Source: Bacteroidales bacterium
GTDB lineage: Bacteria; Bacteroidota; Bacteroidia; Bacteroidales; UBA932
NCBI GenBank assembly: GCA_030695305.1
Contig: JAUYTB010000119.1
Coordinates: 1-44,798, forward strand
Length of the DNA: 44,798 bases
Direction: 5' to 3'
The notes beneath the pieces were generated by a model. The model worked only from the letters and a program-made list of their open reading frames with translations. It searched no databases and was not told the DNA's origin. The translations under genes and the position numbers were made by a program. Below, one piece after another: positions 8,903 to 17,397 of the stretch; the first letter of the stretch is position 1, and each line of letters begins with the position of its first letter.

Positions 8903-9946
8903 TTAATTCATCCTCAGTAGCAGTTGTGCAATCTGAACAGCATTTGAAGCTGCCCCTTTTCTTAGATTATCTGCTACTATCCACATATTTACCGCCTTTT
9001 TGCAAGAGAGATCCTCTCTCACACGTCCCACAAAAACCTCATCTTTACCGTATGCATAAAGAGGCATAGGGTAGGGTGGATTATCGGAGTTGTCAATAAA
9101 TATTGTGCCGGGAGTTTTGCGCAATATAGCAAAAATATCCTCCATTGTAAACTCCCTTTCAAACTCTGCATTCACAGACTCCGAGTGTCCTCCCTCTACC
9201 GGAACCCTCACTGTGGTGGCACTTACTGCAATATTATCATCTCCAAATATTTTTCTTGTCTCATTAACCATCTTCATCTCCTCTTTGGTATATCCGTTTT
9301 GGGTAAAGAGATCTATCTGGGGAATAAGATTCATATCTATAGGGTAGGCATACGCCTTATCTCTGCCCCCTGAAACCCTGTTCCCGGGAGCTGCAGCTTC
9401 AAATTCACTTGAAAGGTTCATCGCCGCCCACTCTCGCCTCTCATCTTGCAGCTGATTAATACCTTTAACTCCGCTGCCGGTTACCGATTGGTAGGTAGAT
9501 ACAACTATACGCTTAATCCTGAGCTCTTTGTGCAGTAGATTAAGTGCTACAACCATCTGAATTGTGGAGCAATTGGGATTTGCAATAATCATATCCATCT
9601 TTGTGAGCGTATCTCCGTTAACCTCAGGTACAATAAGTTTAACATTAGGATCCATTCTCCATCGGGATGAGTTGTCGACAACCCTGCATCCCGCAGCTGC
9701 AAATATGGGTGCCCACTCTCCTGAGGCATCAGATCCGGCAGAGAAGAGAGCAATGTCCGGCTTCATTGCAACTGCCTCTTCCGGGGTTTTTATTATCCAC
9801 TCCTTACCGCCAAAGAGGATTGTTTTTCCGGCAGATTTAGCCGAAGCCACAGGAATAAACTCTGTTACGGGAAAGTTCCTCTCCCTCAATACCTCTGTCA
9901 TTTTGGTGCCAACCAAACCTGTGGCCCCTACTACTGCAATTTTCAT
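8903..9946 (-). CDS. asd: Aspartate-semialdehyde dehydrogenase
   Basis: GATGLVG, ANPNCSTIQM, STYQSVTGSG, DNLRKGAA. Confidence 0.95.
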   Translation of the reverse strand: MKIAVVGATGLVGTKMTEVLRERNFPVTEFIPVASAKSAGKTILFGGKEWIIKTPEEAVAMKPDIALFSAGSDASGEWAPIFAAAGCRVVDNSSRWRMDPNVKLIVPEVNGDTLTKMDMIIANPNCSTIQMVVALNLLHKELRIKRIVVSTYQSVTGSGVKGINQLQDERREWAAMNLSSEFEAAAPGNRVSGGRDKAYAYPIDMNLIPQIDLFTQNGYTKEEMKMVNETRKIFGDDNIAVSATTVRVPVEGGHSESVNAEFEREFTMEDIFAILRKTPGTIFIDNSDNPPYPMPLYAYGKDEVFVGRVREDLSCKKAVNMWIVADNLRKGAASNAVQIAQLLLRMN

Positions 9947-9960
9947 AACACTCTCTTTAT

Positions 9961-12399
9961 TTAAATACCAACTTTAAGTATATCATTAAGCACTCCTCCA
10001 GCTGTTACCCTCGCCCCTGCCCCTGCGCCCGATATCACAACTCCGGCAGGATAGTTAGAGGTGGTTATCATCACCGAGTTGTTGGTCCCGGAGATGTTGT
10101 ACAGAGGGTGGTTAAGCGGAAGCGACCTTAGCCCCACTTTGTAGCACCCCTCCTCTATGGTTGCAACGTATCTGAGTCTCTCCCCCCTATCTGCAGCACT
10201 CTTATATCTCTCAAAAAAAAGTGGTTCGGCCTCTTCAATTTTTGCATAGAATTCCGGTAGGCTTCCATTAAAGAGAGATTTGTCTGCCAGTGGTTCCAGC
10301 AGCACATCCCTCTGTTCGACTCTAAATCCACACTCTCTGGCAATAATAGTACATTTTCTTAAAACATCGGTACCGGATAGATCAACTCTTGGGTCCGGTT
10401 CGGTATATCCGGCATCTTTGGCCTCCTTTACAAGTGAAGCGAAGCTTTTAGTCCCGTCATAATTGCTGTAAAGATAGTTGAGAGTCCCGGATAGAATTGC
10501 CTCAACCGAAATAATCTTCTCTCCACTCACCTTTAACCTTGATAGCGTTTCTATTACAGGAAGCGCTGCCCCTGCAGAGGTCTCATAAAGAAGCGAAACT
10601 CGTCGGTCAAGAGCTGTTCTCTTTAGCTTGTCCCAATATTCAATAGATGACGACAGGGCAATTTTATTGCAAGTAACTACAGATACTCCCTCATCAAGTA
10701 TGTCTGCATATTGCACAGCTACAGAACTTTGAGCGGTACAGTCTGCAAATATGGAGTTTCCGAGAGAGAGAGCAGAGATCTCTTTTATAAATCCGGTTAT
10801 ATCTGTACGCTCTCCTGATGCCAACAGATCTCCGGCAAGGGAGGGGTCTATACCCTCTCTATCTGTAACAGACCGGGTACTGTTGCATATCCCGGCTATA
10901 ACTATATCCTTACCCCACTCCATGGCAATATTTTCTCTGGTCTCATTTATCAGATTTACAAGAGATTTACCAACATTACCAAACCCTGCAATAAACAGAT
11001 TCACCCTCTCTCTCTTGAATCCGAAGAACTCCTCATGTACTACTCTCACTGCATTGTCCGAATCCTTTGCATCTACTATTGCAGATATATTCTTCTCGGA
11101 TGAACCCTGAGCAATAGCGCGTATATTAATGCCGGCCCTTCCGAGTGCATCAAACATCTTTCCACTTGTCCCTGACTGATTCTTCATATCATCACCGACA
11201 AGTGAAATAATTGAGTACCCTCTCTCTACCTTTACCGACTCTACCTTCCCAAGAGACCTTTCATATGCAAATGTCTCGTCTACGGCGTTCCCGGCAATAT
11301 TTGCCACAGACTCTTCAATTGCAACACACATAGTATGAAGCGATGAGGCTTGTGTAATGAGGACAATATTCACCTTTGCGTTTGCAAGTGCGGTGAATAA
11401 CCGGGCAGAGTAGCCCGGAATACCTACCATCCCGCTCCCCTCTAGCGAAAGCAGGGCTATTTTACCGCTGCCCGATATGCCTCGTATTTTACCTCTGCTG
11501 TCCGGAGGGCGATTTTCTATTATTGTAGATGCTCCATGAGGGTCAAATGTGTTTTTGACAATAATGGGAATACCTCCTGCCACAGCCGGTTGGATTGTAG
11601 GCGGATATACAACTTTTGCCCCAAAGTGGGAGAGCTCCAGAGCCTCTTTATAGGAGATATTCTCTATAGTCTTAGCATCCGGTACTACTCTTGGGTCTGC
11701 AGTCATCATCCCGTTTACATCTGTCCATATCTCCAGAACTCTGGCACCGGAAGCAGCCGAAAAAAGTGATGCGGTAAAGTCCGAACCTCCTCTTCCTAAG
11801 GTTGTGGTGCGTCCTTTATGATCGCTGGCAATGTATCCGGGTACTACCCATAATTTTGTTCCGTTGGCATTGAGAAAATTTGTTATATTTCTATCGGTAG
11901 CTTCTATATCTACAATATTCTGATAGTTGTGCGATATTGTCTTTACCAGCTCTCTTGAGTCTGTCCAGATATTATTAATTCCCAATGAACTTAGTTTTGC
12001 CGATATTATAGTGGTTGACAACAGCTCTCCATAACTCACAGCCAGGTCGCATGATCCCTGTGTTAACTCTCCGGTTAGAGAGATTCCCTCAAGTAAACCA
12101 TTAAGAGATTTAAACATATCGCCGCATTTTGCTCTGGTCTGCTCTCTGTAATCTTCCGGGATCAATCCGAGAATAATGGTGTTATGGATATCTTCAAGCG
12201 AAGAGATAATCTCCTTGTAATCCAAATCTCTATCTGATGCCAGAGATGCTGCCTTAATGAGTTTATCTGTACAGCCTCCGATTGCCGATGCCACCAGAAT
12301 TGTCCTGTCTTTTTTTACAGCATCGGCTACTATTGAGACCACCTTTAATATATTTACGACGTTAGCAACCGAGCTTCCGCCAAATTTAAGAACTTGCAT
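9961..12399 (-). CDS. thrA: Bifunctional aspartate kinase/homoserine dehydrogenase (ThrA/MetL type)
   Basis: KFGGSS, LGRGGSD, WTDVNG, two ACT domains, GFGNVG, GYTEPDPRVDLSG, GAGAGA. Confidence 0.92.
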   Translation of the reverse strand: MQVLKFGGSSVANVVNILKVVSIVADAVKKDRTILVASAIGGCTDKLIKAASLASDRDLDYKEIISSLEDIHNTIILGLIPEDYREQTRAKCGDMFKSLNGLLEGISLTGELTQGSCDLAVSYGELLSTTIISAKLSSLGINNIWTDSRELVKTISHNYQNIVDIEATDRNITNFLNANGTKLWVVPGYIASDHKGRTTTLGRGGSDFTASLFSAASGARVLEIWTDVNGMMTADPRVVPDAKTIENISYKEALELSHFGAKVVYPPTIQPAVAGGIPIIVKNTFDPHGASTIIENRPPDSRGKIRGISGSGKIALLSLEGSGMVGIPGYSARLFTALANAKVNIVLITQASSLHTMCVAIEESVANIAGNAVDETFAYERSLGKVESVKVERGYSIISLVGDDMKNQSGTSGKMFDALGRAGINIRAIAQGSSEKNISAIVDAKDSDNAVRVVHEEFFGFKRERVNLFIAGFGNVGKSLVNLINETRENIAMEWGKDIVIAGICNSTRSVTDREGIDPSLAGDLLASGERTDITGFIKEISALSLGNSIFADCTAQSSVAVQYADILDEGVSVVTCNKIALSSSIEYWDKLKRTALDRRVSLLYETSAGAALPVIETLSRLKVSGEKIISVEAILSGTLNYLYSNYDGTKSFASLVKEAKDAGYTEPDPRVDLSGTDVLRKCTIIARECGFRVEQRDVLLEPLADKSLFNGSLPEFYAKIEEAEPLFFERYKSAADRGERLRYVATIEEGCYKVGLRSLPLNHPLYNISGTNNSVMITTSNYPAGVVISGAGAGARVTAGGVLNDILKVGI

Positions 12400-13447
12400 A
12401 TAATTTTTTATTAGCTTTTGATTTTGAATTGAATATCTCCGGAAAAGAGTTTATAACAGCATCTGCTGTCTGGTTATACTCCAAAAGAAACCCATCGTGC
12501 CCAAAGAGTGATTTTATCTCTGCGAATGATGCATTTGGAATATTCTCTGCCAAAAAACGCTGCTCTTCTATAGGGAAGAGAAGATCACTGTCAATTCCTA
12601 TTACCAGTGTATTGGCCTCTATTTTGGAAAGTGCATTTATTACGCCACCCCGATATCTCCCAACATTATGGCTATCAATAGATTTAGTCAATGTAAAATA
12701 GGAGTAGGCATCAAAACGGGCCGAAAGCTTTTCTCCCTGATACTGTTGGTAACTGCCAGCTCTTTTCGCAAAGAGAGAGTCCTGGTCAGGCTCTTTTTGG
12801 GATACTCCGTATCCTTCGTATGAGCGGTAGGAGAGTAGTGCTATTGAGCGAGCTGTCTCAAGCCCTTTTTTGCCCCCATTGCTATCTCTCTGCTCTGTAA
12901 ATGTTGGATCGGAGAGTATTGCAAGTCTTTGAGATTCATTGAATGCCGTACCCCATGGAGAGACGCGGGCATTACAAGCTATAAGAGCCAATCTCTCTAC
13001 TACTTGCGGATAGGATGCTGCCCACTCAAGAGCCTGGAATCCGCCAATTGAACCCCCTGTAATAAGATCTATCTGCTCAATTCCTATTGCCTTCCTTAAA
13101 ATATTATGGGCTTTAACGGTGTCTCTTACAGTTACTTGAGGAAATCGTAGCAGATACTGCCTCCCCTCTTTATCAAGGGAAGCGGGGCCTGTTGTGCCGT
13201 AGCAAGATCCAAGTACATTTGCGCAGATTATATAGAACCTATCTGTGTCAAACAGTTTACCAGGACCTGTGAGTCCATCCCACCACTCAATAGGGTTGGA
13301 GTTGGCGGTGAGTGCATGGCAGATCCAGATAACTCTTTTATCCGGAGAGTAGTTTGCCGTATGGTGATAGCAAATCTCGAGGGATTCGATAACCTCTCCG
13401 CTCTCTGTCTCAAATTTTCCGGAATATCTAAAAACCTCTCTCTTCAT
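12386..13447 (-). CDS. metX: Homoserine O-acetyltransferase (MetX family)
   Basis: CHALT, GGSIGG nucleophile elbow, SDLLFP, GHDGFL. Confidence 0.92.
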   Translation of the reverse strand: MKREVFRYSGKFETESGEVIESLEICYHHTANYSPDKRVIWICHALTANSNPIEWWDGLTGPGKLFDTDRFYIICANVLGSCYGTTGPASLDKEGRQYLLRFPQVTVRDTVKAHNILRKAIGIEQIDLITGGSIGGFQALEWAASYPQVVERLALIACNARVSPWGTAFNESQRLAILSDPTFTEQRDSNGGKKGLETARSIALLSYRSYEGYGVSQKEPDQDSLFAKRAGSYQQYQGEKLSARFDAYSYFTLTKSIDSHNVGRYRGGVINALSKIEANTLVIGIDSDLLFPIEEQRFLAENIPNASFAEIKSLFGHDGFLLEYNQTADAVINSFPEIFNSKSKANKKLYASS

Positions 13448-13459
13448 AATCTCTCCTCC

Positions 13460-14752
13460 CTAAATAGCTGTAAATGCGCTCTCCAGATCTCTCTTGATAT
13501 CTTCTATATGCTCTATTCCAAGGGATACTCTTAGAGAACTCTCCCCGATACCGGCAACTTGAAGCTCCCGGGGTGTCATCTGTGAGTGGGTAGTGGATGC
13601 AGAATGGCTTATAAGGGTTTTGTTGTCTCCAACATTTGTGAGATGACTTATTAGAGTCAGCCGGGTTACTACCTGAGAGGCCTGCTCTTTGCTCCCCTTT
13701 ATTGCAAAGGATAGGACGCCTCCGAATCCATTGGTGAGGTATCTTTTAGCTCTCTCGTGATTAGGATTATCTATCAGCCCCGGGTAGTTAACCGACTCAA
13801 CCTTAGGGTGGGCCCGGAGCCACTTTGCCAACTCAAGGGCATTATTTACAACTCTTTCAACTCTAAGTGATAGGGTCTCTACCCCTGTGAGGATAAGGAA
13901 TGCATTGAATGGACTCAGACAACATCCCCAGTCGCGAAGACCCTCTGTTCTTGCTTTAACTGCAAAGGCGATATTTCCTGTAGCCGACCCCTCTCCAAAA
14001 CTCTCCCAGAAGCTTACTCCGTGATAGGACTCAGATGGGTTTGTAAAGTATGGAAATCTGCCGTTGTCCCACCGGAATTTTCCGCTATCCACTACAATAC
14101 CTGCCAGTGAGTTGCCGTGCCCGCCTATCCACTTTGTTGCAGAGTGGGTTACAATAGCTGCCCCCAACTCAATAGGGCGACAGAGATATCCCCCTGCTCC
14201 AAATGTGTTATCAACAATAATGGGAACACCGTATTTTTTGCTGATTTTTTCAAACTCTTCAAAATCTGGGATATAAAAGTTTGAATTACTAATAGACTCT
14301 ATATAAATAGCTTTGGTTCTGTTGTCAATTCGGGCCTCAAATGCAGATGAGTCGTTAACCGGAGCAAATCGACTCTCTATTCCCAACCGGGTAAAACTTA
14401 TCTTAAATTGGTTATATGTGCCGCCGTAGAGCGAAGAGGAGCTTATAATGTTGTCTCCCTCTCCTGCAATATTTTGAATAGCAAGAAACTGTGCTGCCTG
14501 TCCCGAAGATGTTGCCACAGCTGCGGCACCACCCTCCAATGCGGCAACTCTCTGCTCTAATACATCTGTGGTAGGGTTTGAAAGTCTTGTGTATATATTA
14601 CCGAACTCTTTAAGTGAGAATAGGTTGGCTGCCTGAGCTGCACTGTCGAAATGAAATGCAGATGTCTGTACGATTGGAGTTGTGCATGGTCCGTTTGGGG
14701 AGATAACTCTACCCGCATGCACCTGTAAGGTATCAAAATGGTTATTCGTCAT
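13460..14752 (-). CDS. metY: O-acetylhomoserine aminocarboxypropyltransferase (sulfhydrylase)
   Basis: YTRLSNPT, SSGQAAQ, HSATKWIGGHG (PLP lysine), NVGDNKTL; probable start ATG 14752 (MTNNHFDTLQVHAG). Confidence 0.92.
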   Translation of the reverse strand: MTNNHFDTLQVHAGRVISPNGPCTTPIVQTSAFHFDSAAQAANLFSLKEFGNIYTRLSNPTTDVLEQRVAALEGGAAAVATSSGQAAQFLAIQNIAGEGDNIISSSSLYGGTYNQFKISFTRLGIESRFAPVNDSSAFEARIDNRTKAIYIESISNSNFYIPDFEEFEKISKKYGVPIIVDNTFGAGGYLCRPIELGAAIVTHSATKWIGGHGNSLAGIVVDSGKFRWDNGRFPYFTNPSESYHGVSFWESFGEGSATGNIAFAVKARTEGLRDWGCCLSPFNAFLILTGVETLSLRVERVVNNALELAKWLRAHPKVESVNYPGLIDNPNHERAKRYLTNGFGGVLSFAIKGSKEQASQVVTRLTLISHLTNVGDNKTLISHSASTTHSQMTPRELQVAGIGESSLRVSLGIEHIEDIKRDLESAFTAI

Positions 14753-14860
14753 TTTTTGATGATGATAATGGAGTTGATAATTTTTTGATCTTTTTTTGGG
14801 CGAATGCCCTGAGCTGATTTTTGGGCTTACACCCAATGGACCTTCGCAGGGCCCGGAAAA

Positions 14861-14974
14861 CTATCTATGCATCTGGCGATGCATTCGCATCATCATCGTC
14901 ATTTGAAACATAACAGAGATTGAAGCAGAAGATCTTCTGCCTGCAGATGTTTGTATAAGGTTCTCTCTGTTCAT
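14861..14974 (-). CDS. Putative Met-rich leader (attenuator) peptide, 37 aa
   Basis: ATG at 14974, TAG at 14861: MNRENLIQTSAGRRSSASISVMFQMTMMMRMHRQMHR*; 7 Met in residues 22-35; lies between the promoter and metY. Confidence 0.8.
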   Translation of the reverse strand: MNRENLIQTSAGRRSSASISVMFQMTMMMRMHRQMHR

Positions 14975-14991
14975 TCGAAATATTGCAACTG

Positions 14992-15022
14992 CAAATATAT
15001 CTATTCTTTTTTTTCTGCCAAA
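14992..15022 (-). promoter_or_regulatory. Bacteroidetes housekeeping promoter for the met leader/operon
   Basis: TTTG (15022-15019), 19-nt spacer, TATATTTG (14999-14992): canonical -33/-7 arrangement. Confidence 0.8.
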
Positions 15023-15071: not shown

Positions 15072-15494
15072 CTATTTACAATCCTCAGAGGGGTTACTGC
15101 AGCCGCAATTGCACCCTGCACACCCCAGTGAAGCTACATTTATAGGGTAACCCTTTATCTTCCAGAGATTCAATCCTCCATCCAAATTAGCAGCAGAAGT
15201 ATATCCCTGAATATTAAGAAGATTAACAATTTTTGTGCTTCTTACCCCTCCGGGACACATTACAATCAGGTTCTTCTCTTTTGGAATCATACCAAGACGT
15301 TCCATAATTTGAGACATTGGATGGTTGACAACATTTTCCAAAGGGATACTCTCCCTCTCTGTCTCATCCTCCTCTCTCACATCAATCATTATTGCCCTAT
15401 TGTTAATAATCTCTTCATAAGCATCATCTGCACTAATGTTTTTTACCCCTGTTAGATGGAACTCCTGGTACAATGGTTTGTCTGTAGTTTTCAT
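15072..15494 (-). CDS. Rhodanese-like domain protein with Cys-rich tail
   Basis: IDVRE, active-site loop CPGGVRS, NLDGGLNLW; C-terminal CAGCNCGC. Confidence 0.85.
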   Translation of the reverse strand: MKTTDKPLYQEFHLTGVKNISADDAYEEIINNRAIMIDVREEDETERESIPLENVVNHPMSQIMERLGMIPKEKNLIVMCPGGVRSTKIVNLLNIQGYTSAANLDGGLNLWKIKGYPINVASLGCAGCNCGCSNPSEDCK

Positions 15495-15512
15495 ATTTTC
15501 TACTGAGTTTTC

Positions 15513-16553
15513 TTAAGATGGGAATTGGTTCTTTGTTTTGTTTGCATATTTAACAAGTGTGAGCATAACCGGGACCTCCGTAAGAACTCCCACCACTGTT
15601 ACAAGCGTAGCGCCCGAGTTGAGACCAAACAGGACAATTGCAACTGCAACAGATAGTTCAAAGAAGTTGCTTGCCCCAATCATAGATGCAGGAGCTGCAA
15701 TATTGTGAGGAAGCTTCCATCTCTTAGCCCATTTATACGCTATAAAGAAGATAAAGAATGTTTGTAAAACTAGCGGAACAGCTATTAGTAATATATTTAG
15801 AGGGCTCTTTAGAATCTTATCTCCCTGAAAAGAGAAAATAATAATAAGAGTTAAAAGAAGTCCGGTTATAGTTGTCCCGGTGAACTTTTTGAGAAAAATG
15901 TTTTCGAAGAACTCTAATCCTCTTCTCTTGATAACAGCTCTTCTGGTAACTACAGCCAAAAGTAGAGGGATAACAACAAAGAGTACTACAGAGAGAATAA
16001 GGGTATTCCAGGGAATTGATATTCCACTAACCCCTAGTAGAAATGTGACAATAGGAATAAATGCCACAAGAATAATGAGATCATTAACTGCAACCTGAAT
16101 TAGTGTGTATGCAGGATTACCTTTTGTAAGGTGACTCCAGACAAAAACCATAGCAGTACATGGAGCTGCCCCAAGAAGAACTGCTCCGGCAAGGTACTCT
16201 TTTGCAAGCTCTGCCGGGATAAAGATCTTAAATACAACATAGAAAAAAAACCAAGATATTGCGAACATTGTAAATGGCTTAATAAGCCAGTTAACAGTCA
16301 GAGTTATAGCCAGCCCTTTAGGCATTTTAACTGCATTTACAATGCTGGAGAAGTCAATTTTTAGCATCATGGGAAAAATCATGATCCATATTAAGATTGC
16401 AATTGGGATAGAGACATTTGCATACTCAAGTTTTCCCAATGCGTCAGGAACAACAGGCAACAACTTACCTATGGCAATTCCTGCCACGATACAAAGAGCA
16501 ACCCATACAGAGAGGTATCTGTCAAAGAATGAAATTCCTTCTATTTTCTTCAT
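15513..16553 (-). CDS. acr3: ACR3 family arsenite efflux transporter
   Basis: FFDRYLSVWV, NWLIKPF, APCTAMVFVW, GASNFFEL, EVPVML. Confidence 0.93.
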   Translation of the reverse strand: MKKIEGISFFDRYLSVWVALCIVAGIAIGKLLPVVPDALGKLEYANVSIPIAILIWIMIFPMMLKIDFSSIVNAVKMPKGLAITLTVNWLIKPFTMFAISWFFFYVVFKIFIPAELAKEYLAGAVLLGAAPCTAMVFVWSHLTKGNPAYTLIQVAVNDLIILVAFIPIVTFLLGVSGISIPWNTLILSVVLFVVIPLLLAVVTRRAVIKRRGLEFFENIFLKKFTGTTITGLLLTLIIIFSFQGDKILKSPLNILLIAVPLVLQTFFIFFIAYKWAKRWKLPHNIAAPASMIGASNFFELSVAVAIVLFGLNSGATLVTVVGVLTEVPVMLTLVKYANKTKNQFPS

Positions 16554-16591
16554 TTTAATAGTTATCTGATTATTTATTAATCTCGAGGTAT

Positions 16592-17017
16592 TTAAAGCTT
16601 TGGAGCGATCTCTTTGGTGTAGAATTCAAAGAAACGATCTTTTATCATATCCCTTATACGGTAGTATTCGCCCATAATATACTCAGGTGTTCCTGTTTTG
16701 TGTGACGGGTCCTCAAAACCAATATGAAGTCTGCTCTTAACCTTGCCAAAGAAGGCAGGGCAGGTTTCATTTGCATCATCGCAAACGGTTATTACATAAT
16801 CCCACTCCTCATTCAGGTATTTGTCAACAATATCGGGTGTGTGCATACTTATATCCACACCCGCTTCGCTCATCACCTTAACAGCAGTCGGATTCACTTG
16901 TTGTGCAGGTTGAGTCCCTGCCGAACATACGGTTATATTATTGTTAAATGATTGAAGGAAACCATGAGCCATCTGGCTTCTGCAGCTGTTTCCTGTACAC
17001 AATATCAATATTTTCAT
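16592..17017 (-). CDS. arsC: Thioredoxin-coupled arsenate reductase (LMW-PTP fold)
   Basis: CTGNSCRSQMA, TVCDDANETCP, FEDP. Confidence 0.92.
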   Translation of the reverse strand: MKILILCTGNSCRSQMAHGFLQSFNNNITVCSAGTQPAQQVNPTAVKVMSEAGVDISMHTPDIVDKYLNEEWDYVITVCDDANETCPAFFGKVKSRLHIGFEDPSHKTGTPEYIMGEYYRIRDMIKDRFFEFYTKEIAPKL

Positions 17018-17067
17018 GTTCTTAAATTATTATTTGTCAATATTATATTTTGGTAGTATTAAAATGT

Positions 17068-17397
17068 TTAGCATTTACATGATAAATCAGGGGTCTCAAT
17101 ATCATCAAAAAAGGAGTTAAATTTACTCTTAAATTCGATAATTTTTGCACTGTTTATACAATAATTGGTCTTAAGTCCCTCTATCTCTCCTACAATAAAT
17201 CCCATCTGCTTAAGTTCGTTAAGATGCTGATATACAGTGCTTCTGCTTAGGGGGATAAAATCAGAGATATCCCCGGATATACATGTGCCACACTTTGCAA
17301 GATATTGAAGAATAGCGAGCCGGGCAGGATGTGATACTGCTTTTGCAAAGAGCGACAACTCTTGCAGATCTTTGTCGAATTTCTCTCTTTTTATCAT
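17068..17397 (-). CDS. arsR: ArsR/SmtB family transcriptional repressor
   Basis: KAVSHPARLAIL, CGTCISGD, LSRSTVYQHLNELK, C-terminal CKC. Confidence 0.9.
   Translation of the reverse strand: MIKREKFDKDLQELSLFAKAVSHPARLAILQYLAKCGTCISGDISDFIPLSRSTVYQHLNELKQMGFIVGEIEGLKTNYCINSAKIIEFKSKFNSFFDDIETPDLSCKC

Follow-up and report, generated by a model that had tools for sequence, protein, structure and literature searches.

We propose that the methionine biosynthesis operon metY-metX-thrA-asd of this bacterium is controlled by a short leader ORF that is rich in Met codons. (The window is the whole 44,798-nucleotide stretch of DNA that we analysed.) The leader is a real and conserved regulatory element, and comparisons with relatives strongly support a conserved, translated, Met-codon-rich leader that would control met genes. 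Judging from the sequences, we are quite confident that it senses methionine through ribosome stalling. Folding and pairing calculations suggest that its main output in this lineage is, with good probability, a helix between the Met codons and the start region of metY. The full proposal, a Met-sensing translational attenuator that would act via this start-region helix, combines these two parts and is on balance probable. The known regulators of met genes are MetJ/MetR, SAM riboswitches, and T-boxes, and control by a leader peptide is least expected for methionine, because methionine also starts every ORF.

A reading of the sequence alone had described the leader ORF as having 37 codons, with 7 ATG codons in 14 positions including a run of three, and all of this is in the sequence, with the peptide as that reading quoted it. 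The Met codons are at residues 22, 25, 27, 28, 29, 31, and 35, and 108 nt separate the stop codon from the metY ATG at 14752. Among the genome's 25,545 ATG-started ORFs of 10-60 amino acids, this ORF has the highest Met density and is the only one with 7 Met in 14 codons (the runner-up has 6), so it is not due to chance. Another small ORF with a Met run, on contig C331, was rejected as it lies inside a long gene in another frame. The leader peptide belongs to no NCBIfam family, and an exact look-up in the protein collection was negative; a match to Pfam DUF5407 was below threshold (18.1 bits versus a cut-off of 25.3) and was rejected.

The -7 box of the promoter (TAnnTTTG) is 17 nt upstream of the leader's ATG, and most loci from the same genus have a similar box 14-18 nt upstream. 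The sequence-only reading was right to place a promoter here, but rather than the "canonical" type that it named, we take this to be a Bacteroidota promoter instead of a sigma-70 one, going by the Bacteroidota consensus. Its naming of the operon holds: the best-matching models are MetY, MetX, aspartate kinase-homoserine dehydrogenase, and Asd (Table 1), with the curated cut-off passed in full by MetY and Asd only, while the bifunctional enzyme passes the thrA model. The genes are closely spaced (12 nt between metY and metX, a 14-nt overlap between metX and the kinase/dehydrogenase gene, and then 14 nt to asd). The bifunctional enzyme is probably the Met-pathway copy, as a second aspartate kinase, with a Thr leader, is on contig C146. 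One RNA run (share 0.09) yielded two short contigs in this region (12617-12857 and 14574-14830), which is too little to show transcription or its ends. We also note an arsenic-resistance cluster directly upstream of the met promoter (15072-17397, minus strand), with an ArsR-family regulator, an arsenate reductase-like gene, acr3, and a rhodanese-like protein with a Cys-rich tail.

Table 1. The leader, its promoter and predicted structures, and the operon, in window coordinates.
Feature	Position	Strand	Basis
Presumed Bacteroidota-type promoter, -33 TTTG (15022-15019) and -7 TATATTTG (14999-14992)	14992..15022	minus	Sequence; consensus
Leader ORF, 37 codons, 7 Met within the final 16 residues	14861..14974	minus	
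Met-codon run (M27-M29 and flank), 5' strand of the predicted long-range helix	14888..14901	minus	Minimum-energy fold; helix tests
Near-invariant core M-R-M-H-R, with rare Arg codon CGA at 14887-14885	14877..14890	minus	
Hairpin H1, 7 bp, 4-nt loop, 5' arm formed by the Met-His codons	14867..14884	minus	
Hairpin H2 of the conserved tandem pair, no U-tail	14838..14854	minus	
Hairpin H3 of the tandem pair, tail A-rich rather than U-rich	14821..14836	minus	
Small hairpin H4, closer relatives only	14798..14809	minus	
CAU-repeat segment that would form the 3' strand of the helix, at about -18 to -3 of metY, with complementarity to the Met-codon run	14755..14770	minus	
metY (O-acetylhomoserine sulfhydrylase), first regulated gene	13460..14752	minus	TIGR01326, 592.9 bits, above cut-off
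metX (homoserine O-acyltransferase family)	12386..13447	minus	TIGR01392, E 1.6e-95, under curated cut-off
Bifunctional aspartate kinase/homoserine dehydrogenase	9961..12399	minus	NF006959, above cut-off
asd (aspartate-semialdehyde dehydrogenase)	8903..9946	minus	NF011456 and TIGR01296, above cut-off

Near its end, the leader has a core (ATG CGA ATG CAT C) that overlaps a hairpin and whose invariance spans about 13 nt. To compare leaders, we reduced 112 loci with a mapped start codon to 74 at 90% identity, of which 72 have sufficient upstream DNA; most of these non-redundant loci were chosen by the core pattern, so the invariance of the core is partly built in. Within 45 nt upstream of the core, the 72 loci have 209 ATGs in frame versus 4 and 2 in the other two frames, so the leader ORF is very likely translated. 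In all 72, the 30 nt just before the core are free of in-frame stops. In the 11 codons that precede the core, Met is the commonest residue (192/792) and Cys is scarce (15/792), so the signal would be Met itself and not the sulfur amino acids as a class. Between 2 and 9 Met codons are found near the leader's end, depending on the locus, and the peptide upstream of the core is free to vary in length and sequence. The leader has two hallmarks of an attenuator: a short upstream ORF between a promoter and a biosynthetic operon, and a conserved in-frame enrichment of codons for the product of the pathway. We dropped two other candidate reading frames: a reinitiated mini-ORF from an AUG in the 3' arm of H1, whose conservation was not seen on inspection, and a Cys-containing +1 frame, which is preceded by stops in 61 of 72 loci. 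Also, the window (at 14930-14960) and many of its relatives share an Ile codon about 5-7 codons past the start, often following His or Phe; in some short leaders (L097, L105, and L170), the segment with this codon pairs with the downstream start codon.

The sequence-only reading had suggested looking for Met-rich ORFs upstream of metY and metX orthologues, and these are indeed there. A search for metY matched 42 of 61 genomes, from which we took 30 loci: 28 from the window's genus (including its own) and two from other families. A Met-rich leader that ends with R-M-H-R and a short tail was found in all 27 of the same-genus loci with upstream DNA (one further locus has none), and at neither of the two metY loci from other families. 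Scanning genomes with the core pattern gave at least 118 loci; among the matches listed, 66 are before metY, 15 are before metX (so 81 of 118 are upstream of one or the other), and 37 are before neither. Most of those 37 are from unrelated taxa, and four are leader-like, in loci that are too short to reach the gene. The same core found 96 loci in metagenomes: 57 before metY, 30 before metX (87 of 96 in all), four truncated leaders, and five that are unrelated. Matches to the core include Ca. Egerieisoma, Ca. Egerieousia, Ca. Cryptobacteroides, and many other Bacteroidales. In a set of metX loci that was collected without the pattern, 15 of 40 have a recognisable core. In the other 25, the upstream DNA is cut, metX is internal, or the leader is absent or decayed. 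(The decayed leaders, in L186, L187, L190, and L192, have a truncated ORF, a degenerate core, or a deletion that places the stop a few bases from the start.)

The leader is kept across MetY proteins that share only about 50-90% identity, and it seems to be mostly specific to one family: draws of family genomes around two core-bearing records returned one and the same list, including a leader identical to one from the window's genus. Among 401 genomes from across the order, 23 matched the core with up to 2 mismatches and 9 matched a second pattern, and on inspection, only the window's own match was a true leader; the others were discarded as unrelated coding or intergenic sequence. The exact core was not found outside the family in these 401 genomes, which included only four others from the family. 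We also note that a locus labelled as Eggerthellaceae (L101) has a Bacteroidales-type leader. Its MetY groups with those of Bacteroidales, on a long branch, and either mis-binning or transfer is possible.

In the minimum-energy fold of the window's leader (z -4.8), the Met codons pair with a CAU repeat just upstream of the metY ATG, and H1-H4 are enclosed within this helix. Of the 28 long-tailed leaders, 13 have the motif CATCAT within 30 nt of the start codon, as do 6 of the 46 short-tailed ones; among 1,293 start regions from the genome, the rate is 0.5%. For the tests of pairing, we split the loci into group A, which have the H2-H3 pair and are mostly from the window's genus, and group B, which are the rest, mostly from gut genera, with the stop codon inside the H1 loop. 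Our first duplex test was confined to the Met run and overlooked helices that use upstream leader codons, so a wider test was then used. In group A, leaders pair more strongly with their own start regions than with those permuted among loci (-13.7 versus -11.8 kcal/mol, n=27, p 0.0002), as they do in group B (-10.7 versus -9.7 kcal/mol, n=45, p 0.0004). (These energies are summed stacking terms and are for comparative use only, and the loci are kin, so the p values are overstated.) The result was replicated with 14 new metagenome loci (-11.5 versus -9.6, p 0.001), of which three were individually significant. Leader pairing peaks in windows that end at the start codon, and the first gene's start is preferred over the second gene's in 24 of 33 loci. 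Dinucleotide shuffles were beaten at p≤0.05 by 15 of 27 loci from group A and by 8 of 45 from group B. The other 12 in group A fail to do so, and L015, L026, L084, and L118 are among those without the helix. Pairing between the codon run and the initiation region is thus found in the window and in group A, and in only a minority (the 8 of 45) of group B.

Several relatives have matched changes in both strands of the helix. These involve a Val codon in L027 and L028, Ile in L017, Gln in L006, Trp in L020, and Ser in L101 and L112, and unrelated helices of 9-12 bp are found in L097, L105, L114, and L199. The matched changes fall on separate branches of the MetY tree or before metX. (The tree has 51 proteins; loci that were shorter or were from metX were left out.)

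To see what a ribosome on the leader would do, we used a crude model in which the RNA is folded at equilibrium and the ribosome covers a fixed stretch, from -17 to +12 relative to the A site. In the window, the free RNA has a predicted unpaired fraction of 0.12 at -20 to -5 of metY; the value is 0.56-0.61 when the ribosome is on the Met run, 0.45 when it is at the last Met, and 0.26 when it is at the stop. Averaged over group A (n=26), the fraction is 0.42 for free RNA, 0.59 for a ribosome on Met, and 0.44 both for one at the stop and for one on an upstream control codon. With the ribosome on the Met run, accessibility increases by more than 0.1 in 17-18 of these 26 loci and decreases in none of them; with the ribosome at the stop or 45 nt upstream, it increases in three. 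So, in the folding model for group A, a ribosome on the run opens the initiation region and one at the stop does not, and this is not seen in group B (n=41), where a Met-positioned ribosome leaves mean start accessibility unchanged (0.51 to 0.54, not significant). The outputs of group B look mixed, as some loci have a helix, some have a U-tailed hairpin, and many have only a pyrimidine tract, onto which Rho could load.

In the mechanism that we propose, the leader ORF would be translated from its promoter-proximal ATG. With ample Met, ribosomes would clear the run and reach the stop, and the exposed run would re-pair with the metY start across the compact H1-H4 and block initiation. With low Met (and Met-tRNA in short supply), the ribosome would stall at the run, so that the metY start region would stay open and metY would be translated. 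The closely spaced metX-thrA-asd would follow by translational coupling and by polarity, as Rho is present. In the weakest step, the rare CGA codon and H1 would delay the ribosome at the run and determine the threshold. The biological context favours the model: Shine-Dalgarno motifs are missing in Bacteroidetes, where structure and adenines at -3, -6, -12, and -13 tune initiation (PMC6847099). A shortage of Met should also slow initiation on the leader itself, which counts against the model. On this point, Elf et al. are said to have found in 2003 that elongator tRNA-Met is discharged ahead of initiator tRNA.

H1 is maintained despite loop insertions that shift the frame (L015 and L026), a wobble change (L204), and extensions of the stem (L199 and L214), and its loops mostly open with G and close with A. 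In all 28 group A loci, H2 begins 34-38 nt from the core and its outer two pairs are G-C. The third pair is G-U in 24 of 28, and the fourth is C-G, U-A, U-G, or A-U. The stems of H3 differ among loci yet remain paired. With structure conserved as sequence changes, the H2-H3 pair may compact the spacer so that the long helix can close. Beyond H1, the structures of groups A and B are unlike. Neither the CGA-ATG-CAT core nor the 3' arm of H1 has a conserved partner downstream. (In the window, H4 contains a perfect 8-nt complement of the sequence that we tested for partners, core / H1 3' arm, and this is specific to the lineage.)

No U-tailed stem is found between H1 and metY in the window, and candidate terminators are absent from 23 of the 28 loci with long tails and from 31 of the 46 with short tails; the 20 of 74 that have one share no common position. 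A partner for a freed 3' arm of H1 was found in 0 of 72 loci at p≤0.1, and no consistent alternative fold was seen in the part of the fold comparison that was inspected. Intrinsic attenuators are recognisable in this organism, as shown by its Thr leader (contig C146), where a GC-rich stem followed by seven U precedes the second aspartate kinase. This Thr-rich leader ORF (28 codons, at 603-689 on the minus strand) with its strong U-tailed terminator is a classical thr attenuator. So, of the attenuation proposed in the sequence-only reading, a conserved and translated Met-codon leader stands, while an output of the Trp/His/Thr type does not, since the U-tailed terminator is missing and the evidence points to translation initiation.

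That reading had also recognised no SAM riboswitch or T-box, and Rfam agrees. On the leader's coding strand there is no match at E≤5, so no Rfam family explains the region, and the lone match, to a snoRNA (E 2.8), is inside metY on the opposite strand and is not relevant. Covariance models for SAM riboswitches (I, II, III, IV, V, and SAM/SAH) and the T-box have no match in any of 18 leader loci. This negative result is informative because Rfam does detect a SAM-II long-loop riboswitch (RF01726, 62.7 bits) upstream of metK elsewhere in this genome (contig C313; L224 2790-2849, minus strand). Neither SAM-I nor MetJ (PF01340) was found in the genome, which is 88.6% complete. In other Bacteroidales families, SAM-I and a short ORF with a Met/Cys tail are found together before metY (L230, L232, L258, L261, L264, and L271). 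Elsewhere in these families, Met-rich leaders are followed by what appear, by eye, to be U-tailed terminators (L254, L260, and L289), and L289 has two Met-rich ORFs in tandem.

Other outputs of stalling have to be weighed against the start-region helix. Stalling could instead control Rho-dependent premature termination, with H1 as a pause hairpin for the polymerase and with Rho loaded onto the C/U-rich, G-poor leader after the ribosome leaves. A rho gene is found in the genome, G makes up only 1-6% of the 30 nt before the start in the long-tailed group, group B has a pyrimidine-rich tract right behind H1, and the fixed spacing of H2 from the core would fit, too; termination by Rho could also account for the loci in group B that lack a helix. 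However, a Met-stalled ribosome would, by geometry, leave the pyrimidine tract uncovered, the 3' arm of H1 has no conserved partner, and the matched start-region helices would be left unaccounted for. We consider this explanation unlikely, and any part played by Rho may be limited to secondary polarity. A classical transcription attenuator, with an antiterminator and a U-tailed intrinsic terminator as in trpL, hisL, or thrL, would share the layout in which regulatory codons overlap the first hairpin. A simple scan calls H1 terminator-like, and some relatives (such as L106) have a strong U-tailed hairpin. But H1 is directly followed by AGAUAG, there is no conserved 2:3 pairing, terminators downstream of H1 are missing from the window and most relatives, and the same genome's Thr leader shows what the true form looks like, so we think that this is very unlikely.

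If R-M-H near the C terminus formed a nascent arrest peptide that sensed SAM, Met, or homocysteine, much as TnaC senses Trp, then R-M-H should be conserved as a peptide, and it is present in 74 of 74 loci, with one synonymous change of the Arg codon (L201); R-M also recurs in the tails of metY leaders from other families and in the printed part of the Streptomyces metL peptide. Yet conservation is at the level of codons, with no free synonymous change apart from L201. CGA is used in 27 of 27 same-genus loci that were found without the pattern, even though it is just 4.8% of the genome's Arg codons. The upstream residues that would line the tunnel vary freely, the tail changes frame, and the varying count of terminal Met codons resembles leaders that count codons, which makes an arrest peptide quite improbable. 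Invariance at the nucleotide level, the G...A tendency of the H1 loop, and the G-U third pair of H2 could also indicate that the core and hairpins are an undescribed RNA aptamer or a protein-binding site (for SAM, for example), with the reading frame incidental, and SAM-I riboswitches are found at 11 of 40 scanned metY loci from other families. We strongly doubt this, because an element that acts only as RNA would not be expected to have an open frame in 72 of 72 loci or an in-frame excess of isolated, non-tandem ATGs before the core (104 versus 4 and 2); also, the structures of groups A and B differ outside H1, and Rfam finds nothing in the 18 loci. The same isolated ATGs argue against the leader being a neutral by-product of an ATG trinucleotide repeat. 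Tandem repeats are mutually in frame by construction, and a few leaders before metX look decayed, but the isolated ATGs are likewise in frame, only metY or metX follow among the interpretable matches listed, and the leader is retained across quite divergent MetY proteins, so a leader with no regulatory role is hardly credible.

The start-region helix leaves the fixed CGA-ATG-CAT core and the conserved H2-H3 pair unaccounted for. In the core, H1 accounts for the Met-His codons but not for CGA. Among the non-redundant loci, which were mostly chosen by the pattern, CGA is found in 73 of 74, ATG in 74 of 74, and CAT in 74 of 74; CGA is also in 14 of the 15 cores from the metX set. No tRNA with a UCG anticodon was found in this genome (88.6% complete). 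In an assay with the Salmonella his leader, CGA was slowly read (PMC4046918). We infer that CGA may be a built-in pause that tunes sensitivity.

A preference for CGA before Met is also seen in other families. We surveyed 70 of their metY loci (two of which repeat loci that were already covered) and found 19 short Met/Cys-rich ORFs before metY, versus 6 on the antisense strand (11 versus 2 with a stricter cut). In the short ORFs, Met follows CGA in 6 of 8 uses and follows the other Arg codons in 2 of 33 (Fisher p 0.00016). In their tails, CGA encodes the Arg in 8 of 12 Arg-Met pairs (from 7 loci); the corresponding figures are 0 of 3 for the antisense strand and 62 of 713 for this genome's long ORFs. 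An in-frame CGA-ATG near the end of such an ORF is found in L248, L249, L254, L257, L258, L261, and L271. Tentatively, and with more doubt than confidence, we suggest that the CGA-AUG pair, alone or with the ensuing hairpin, might be a dedicated Met-sensing ribosome brake in Met/Cys leaders across Bacteroidales, with differing outputs (a start-region helix, a terminator, or operation in tandem with SAM-I). If so, ribosomes could read the supply of Met even though the leader itself needs Met to start.

If the proposed attenuator is real, it shows how a phylum without Shine-Dalgarno pairing can switch translation on and off, and it adds a regulator for common Bacteroidales of the gut, the rumen, and anaerobic digesters. 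The mechanism is open to direct testing, because the family offers well over 70 natural variants in which changes in one strand of the proposed helix are matched in the other.

The sequence-only reading had called the system possibly undescribed. This holds in that the titles and abstracts that we searched report no tested Met-codon attenuator and nothing on this family of leaders, and searches by passage in PMC5314783, PMC2965389, PMC9723704, PMC7366714, PMC2864571, and PMC5041488 turned up no Met leader. It does not hold in that RNA-seq led to the annotation of a Met leader, metL, upstream of metNIQ in Streptomyces lividans, for which neither a mechanism nor a test was given (PMC8079986). 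In its features, metL resembles the present leader in being a short upstream ORF that is called methionine-dependent, with no typical intrinsic terminator and with Arg-Met in the printed tail of its peptide. For its part, metL precedes a transporter, is leaderless, and has two internal Met and three Cys (PMC8079986). Like the SAM-I (RF00162) and SAM-II long-loop (RF01726) riboswitches, our leader would control Met/SAM genes of Bacteroidales in cis; unlike them, it has no Rfam match, and its signal would be charged Met-tRNA and not SAM. With trpL, hisL, thrL, leuL, pheL, ilvL, the Thr leader of contig C146, and Bacteroid-trp (RF01692), it shares an ORF that is enriched in codons for the product and a first hairpin over the regulatory codons. 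Unlike these classical attenuators, it has no conserved antiterminator or U-tailed terminator, and its predicted output is translation initiation.

In its working, the leader is like two other systems, rather than the classical terminator type or the SAM and T-box families of Rfam. One is the LEU element before leuA in Actinobacteria, in which pairing is predicted between the Leu-codon run and the ribosome-binding region of the first gene (PMC1262725). The LEU element reads Leu, has a pseudoknot, pairs with a Shine-Dalgarno box, and is from a different phylum. The other is Ms5788A, a polycysteine short-ORF translational attenuator of Mycobacterium smegmatis, for which the same logic was shown with Cys (10.1101/834739). 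In both Ms5788A and the proposed mechanism, a short ORF has, close to its end, a series of codons for the end product that pairs just upstream of the next gene, and a stalled ribosome would free that region, without a terminator. Unlike Ms5788A, our leader reads Met, which is also the initiating amino acid; it is not leaderless, as its ATG is 17 nt from the promoter box; its target is an A-rich Bacteroidota start region without a Shine-Dalgarno motif; and it has the fixed CGA-ATG-CAT core and conserved hairpins. The mechanism is predicted here and was tested there.
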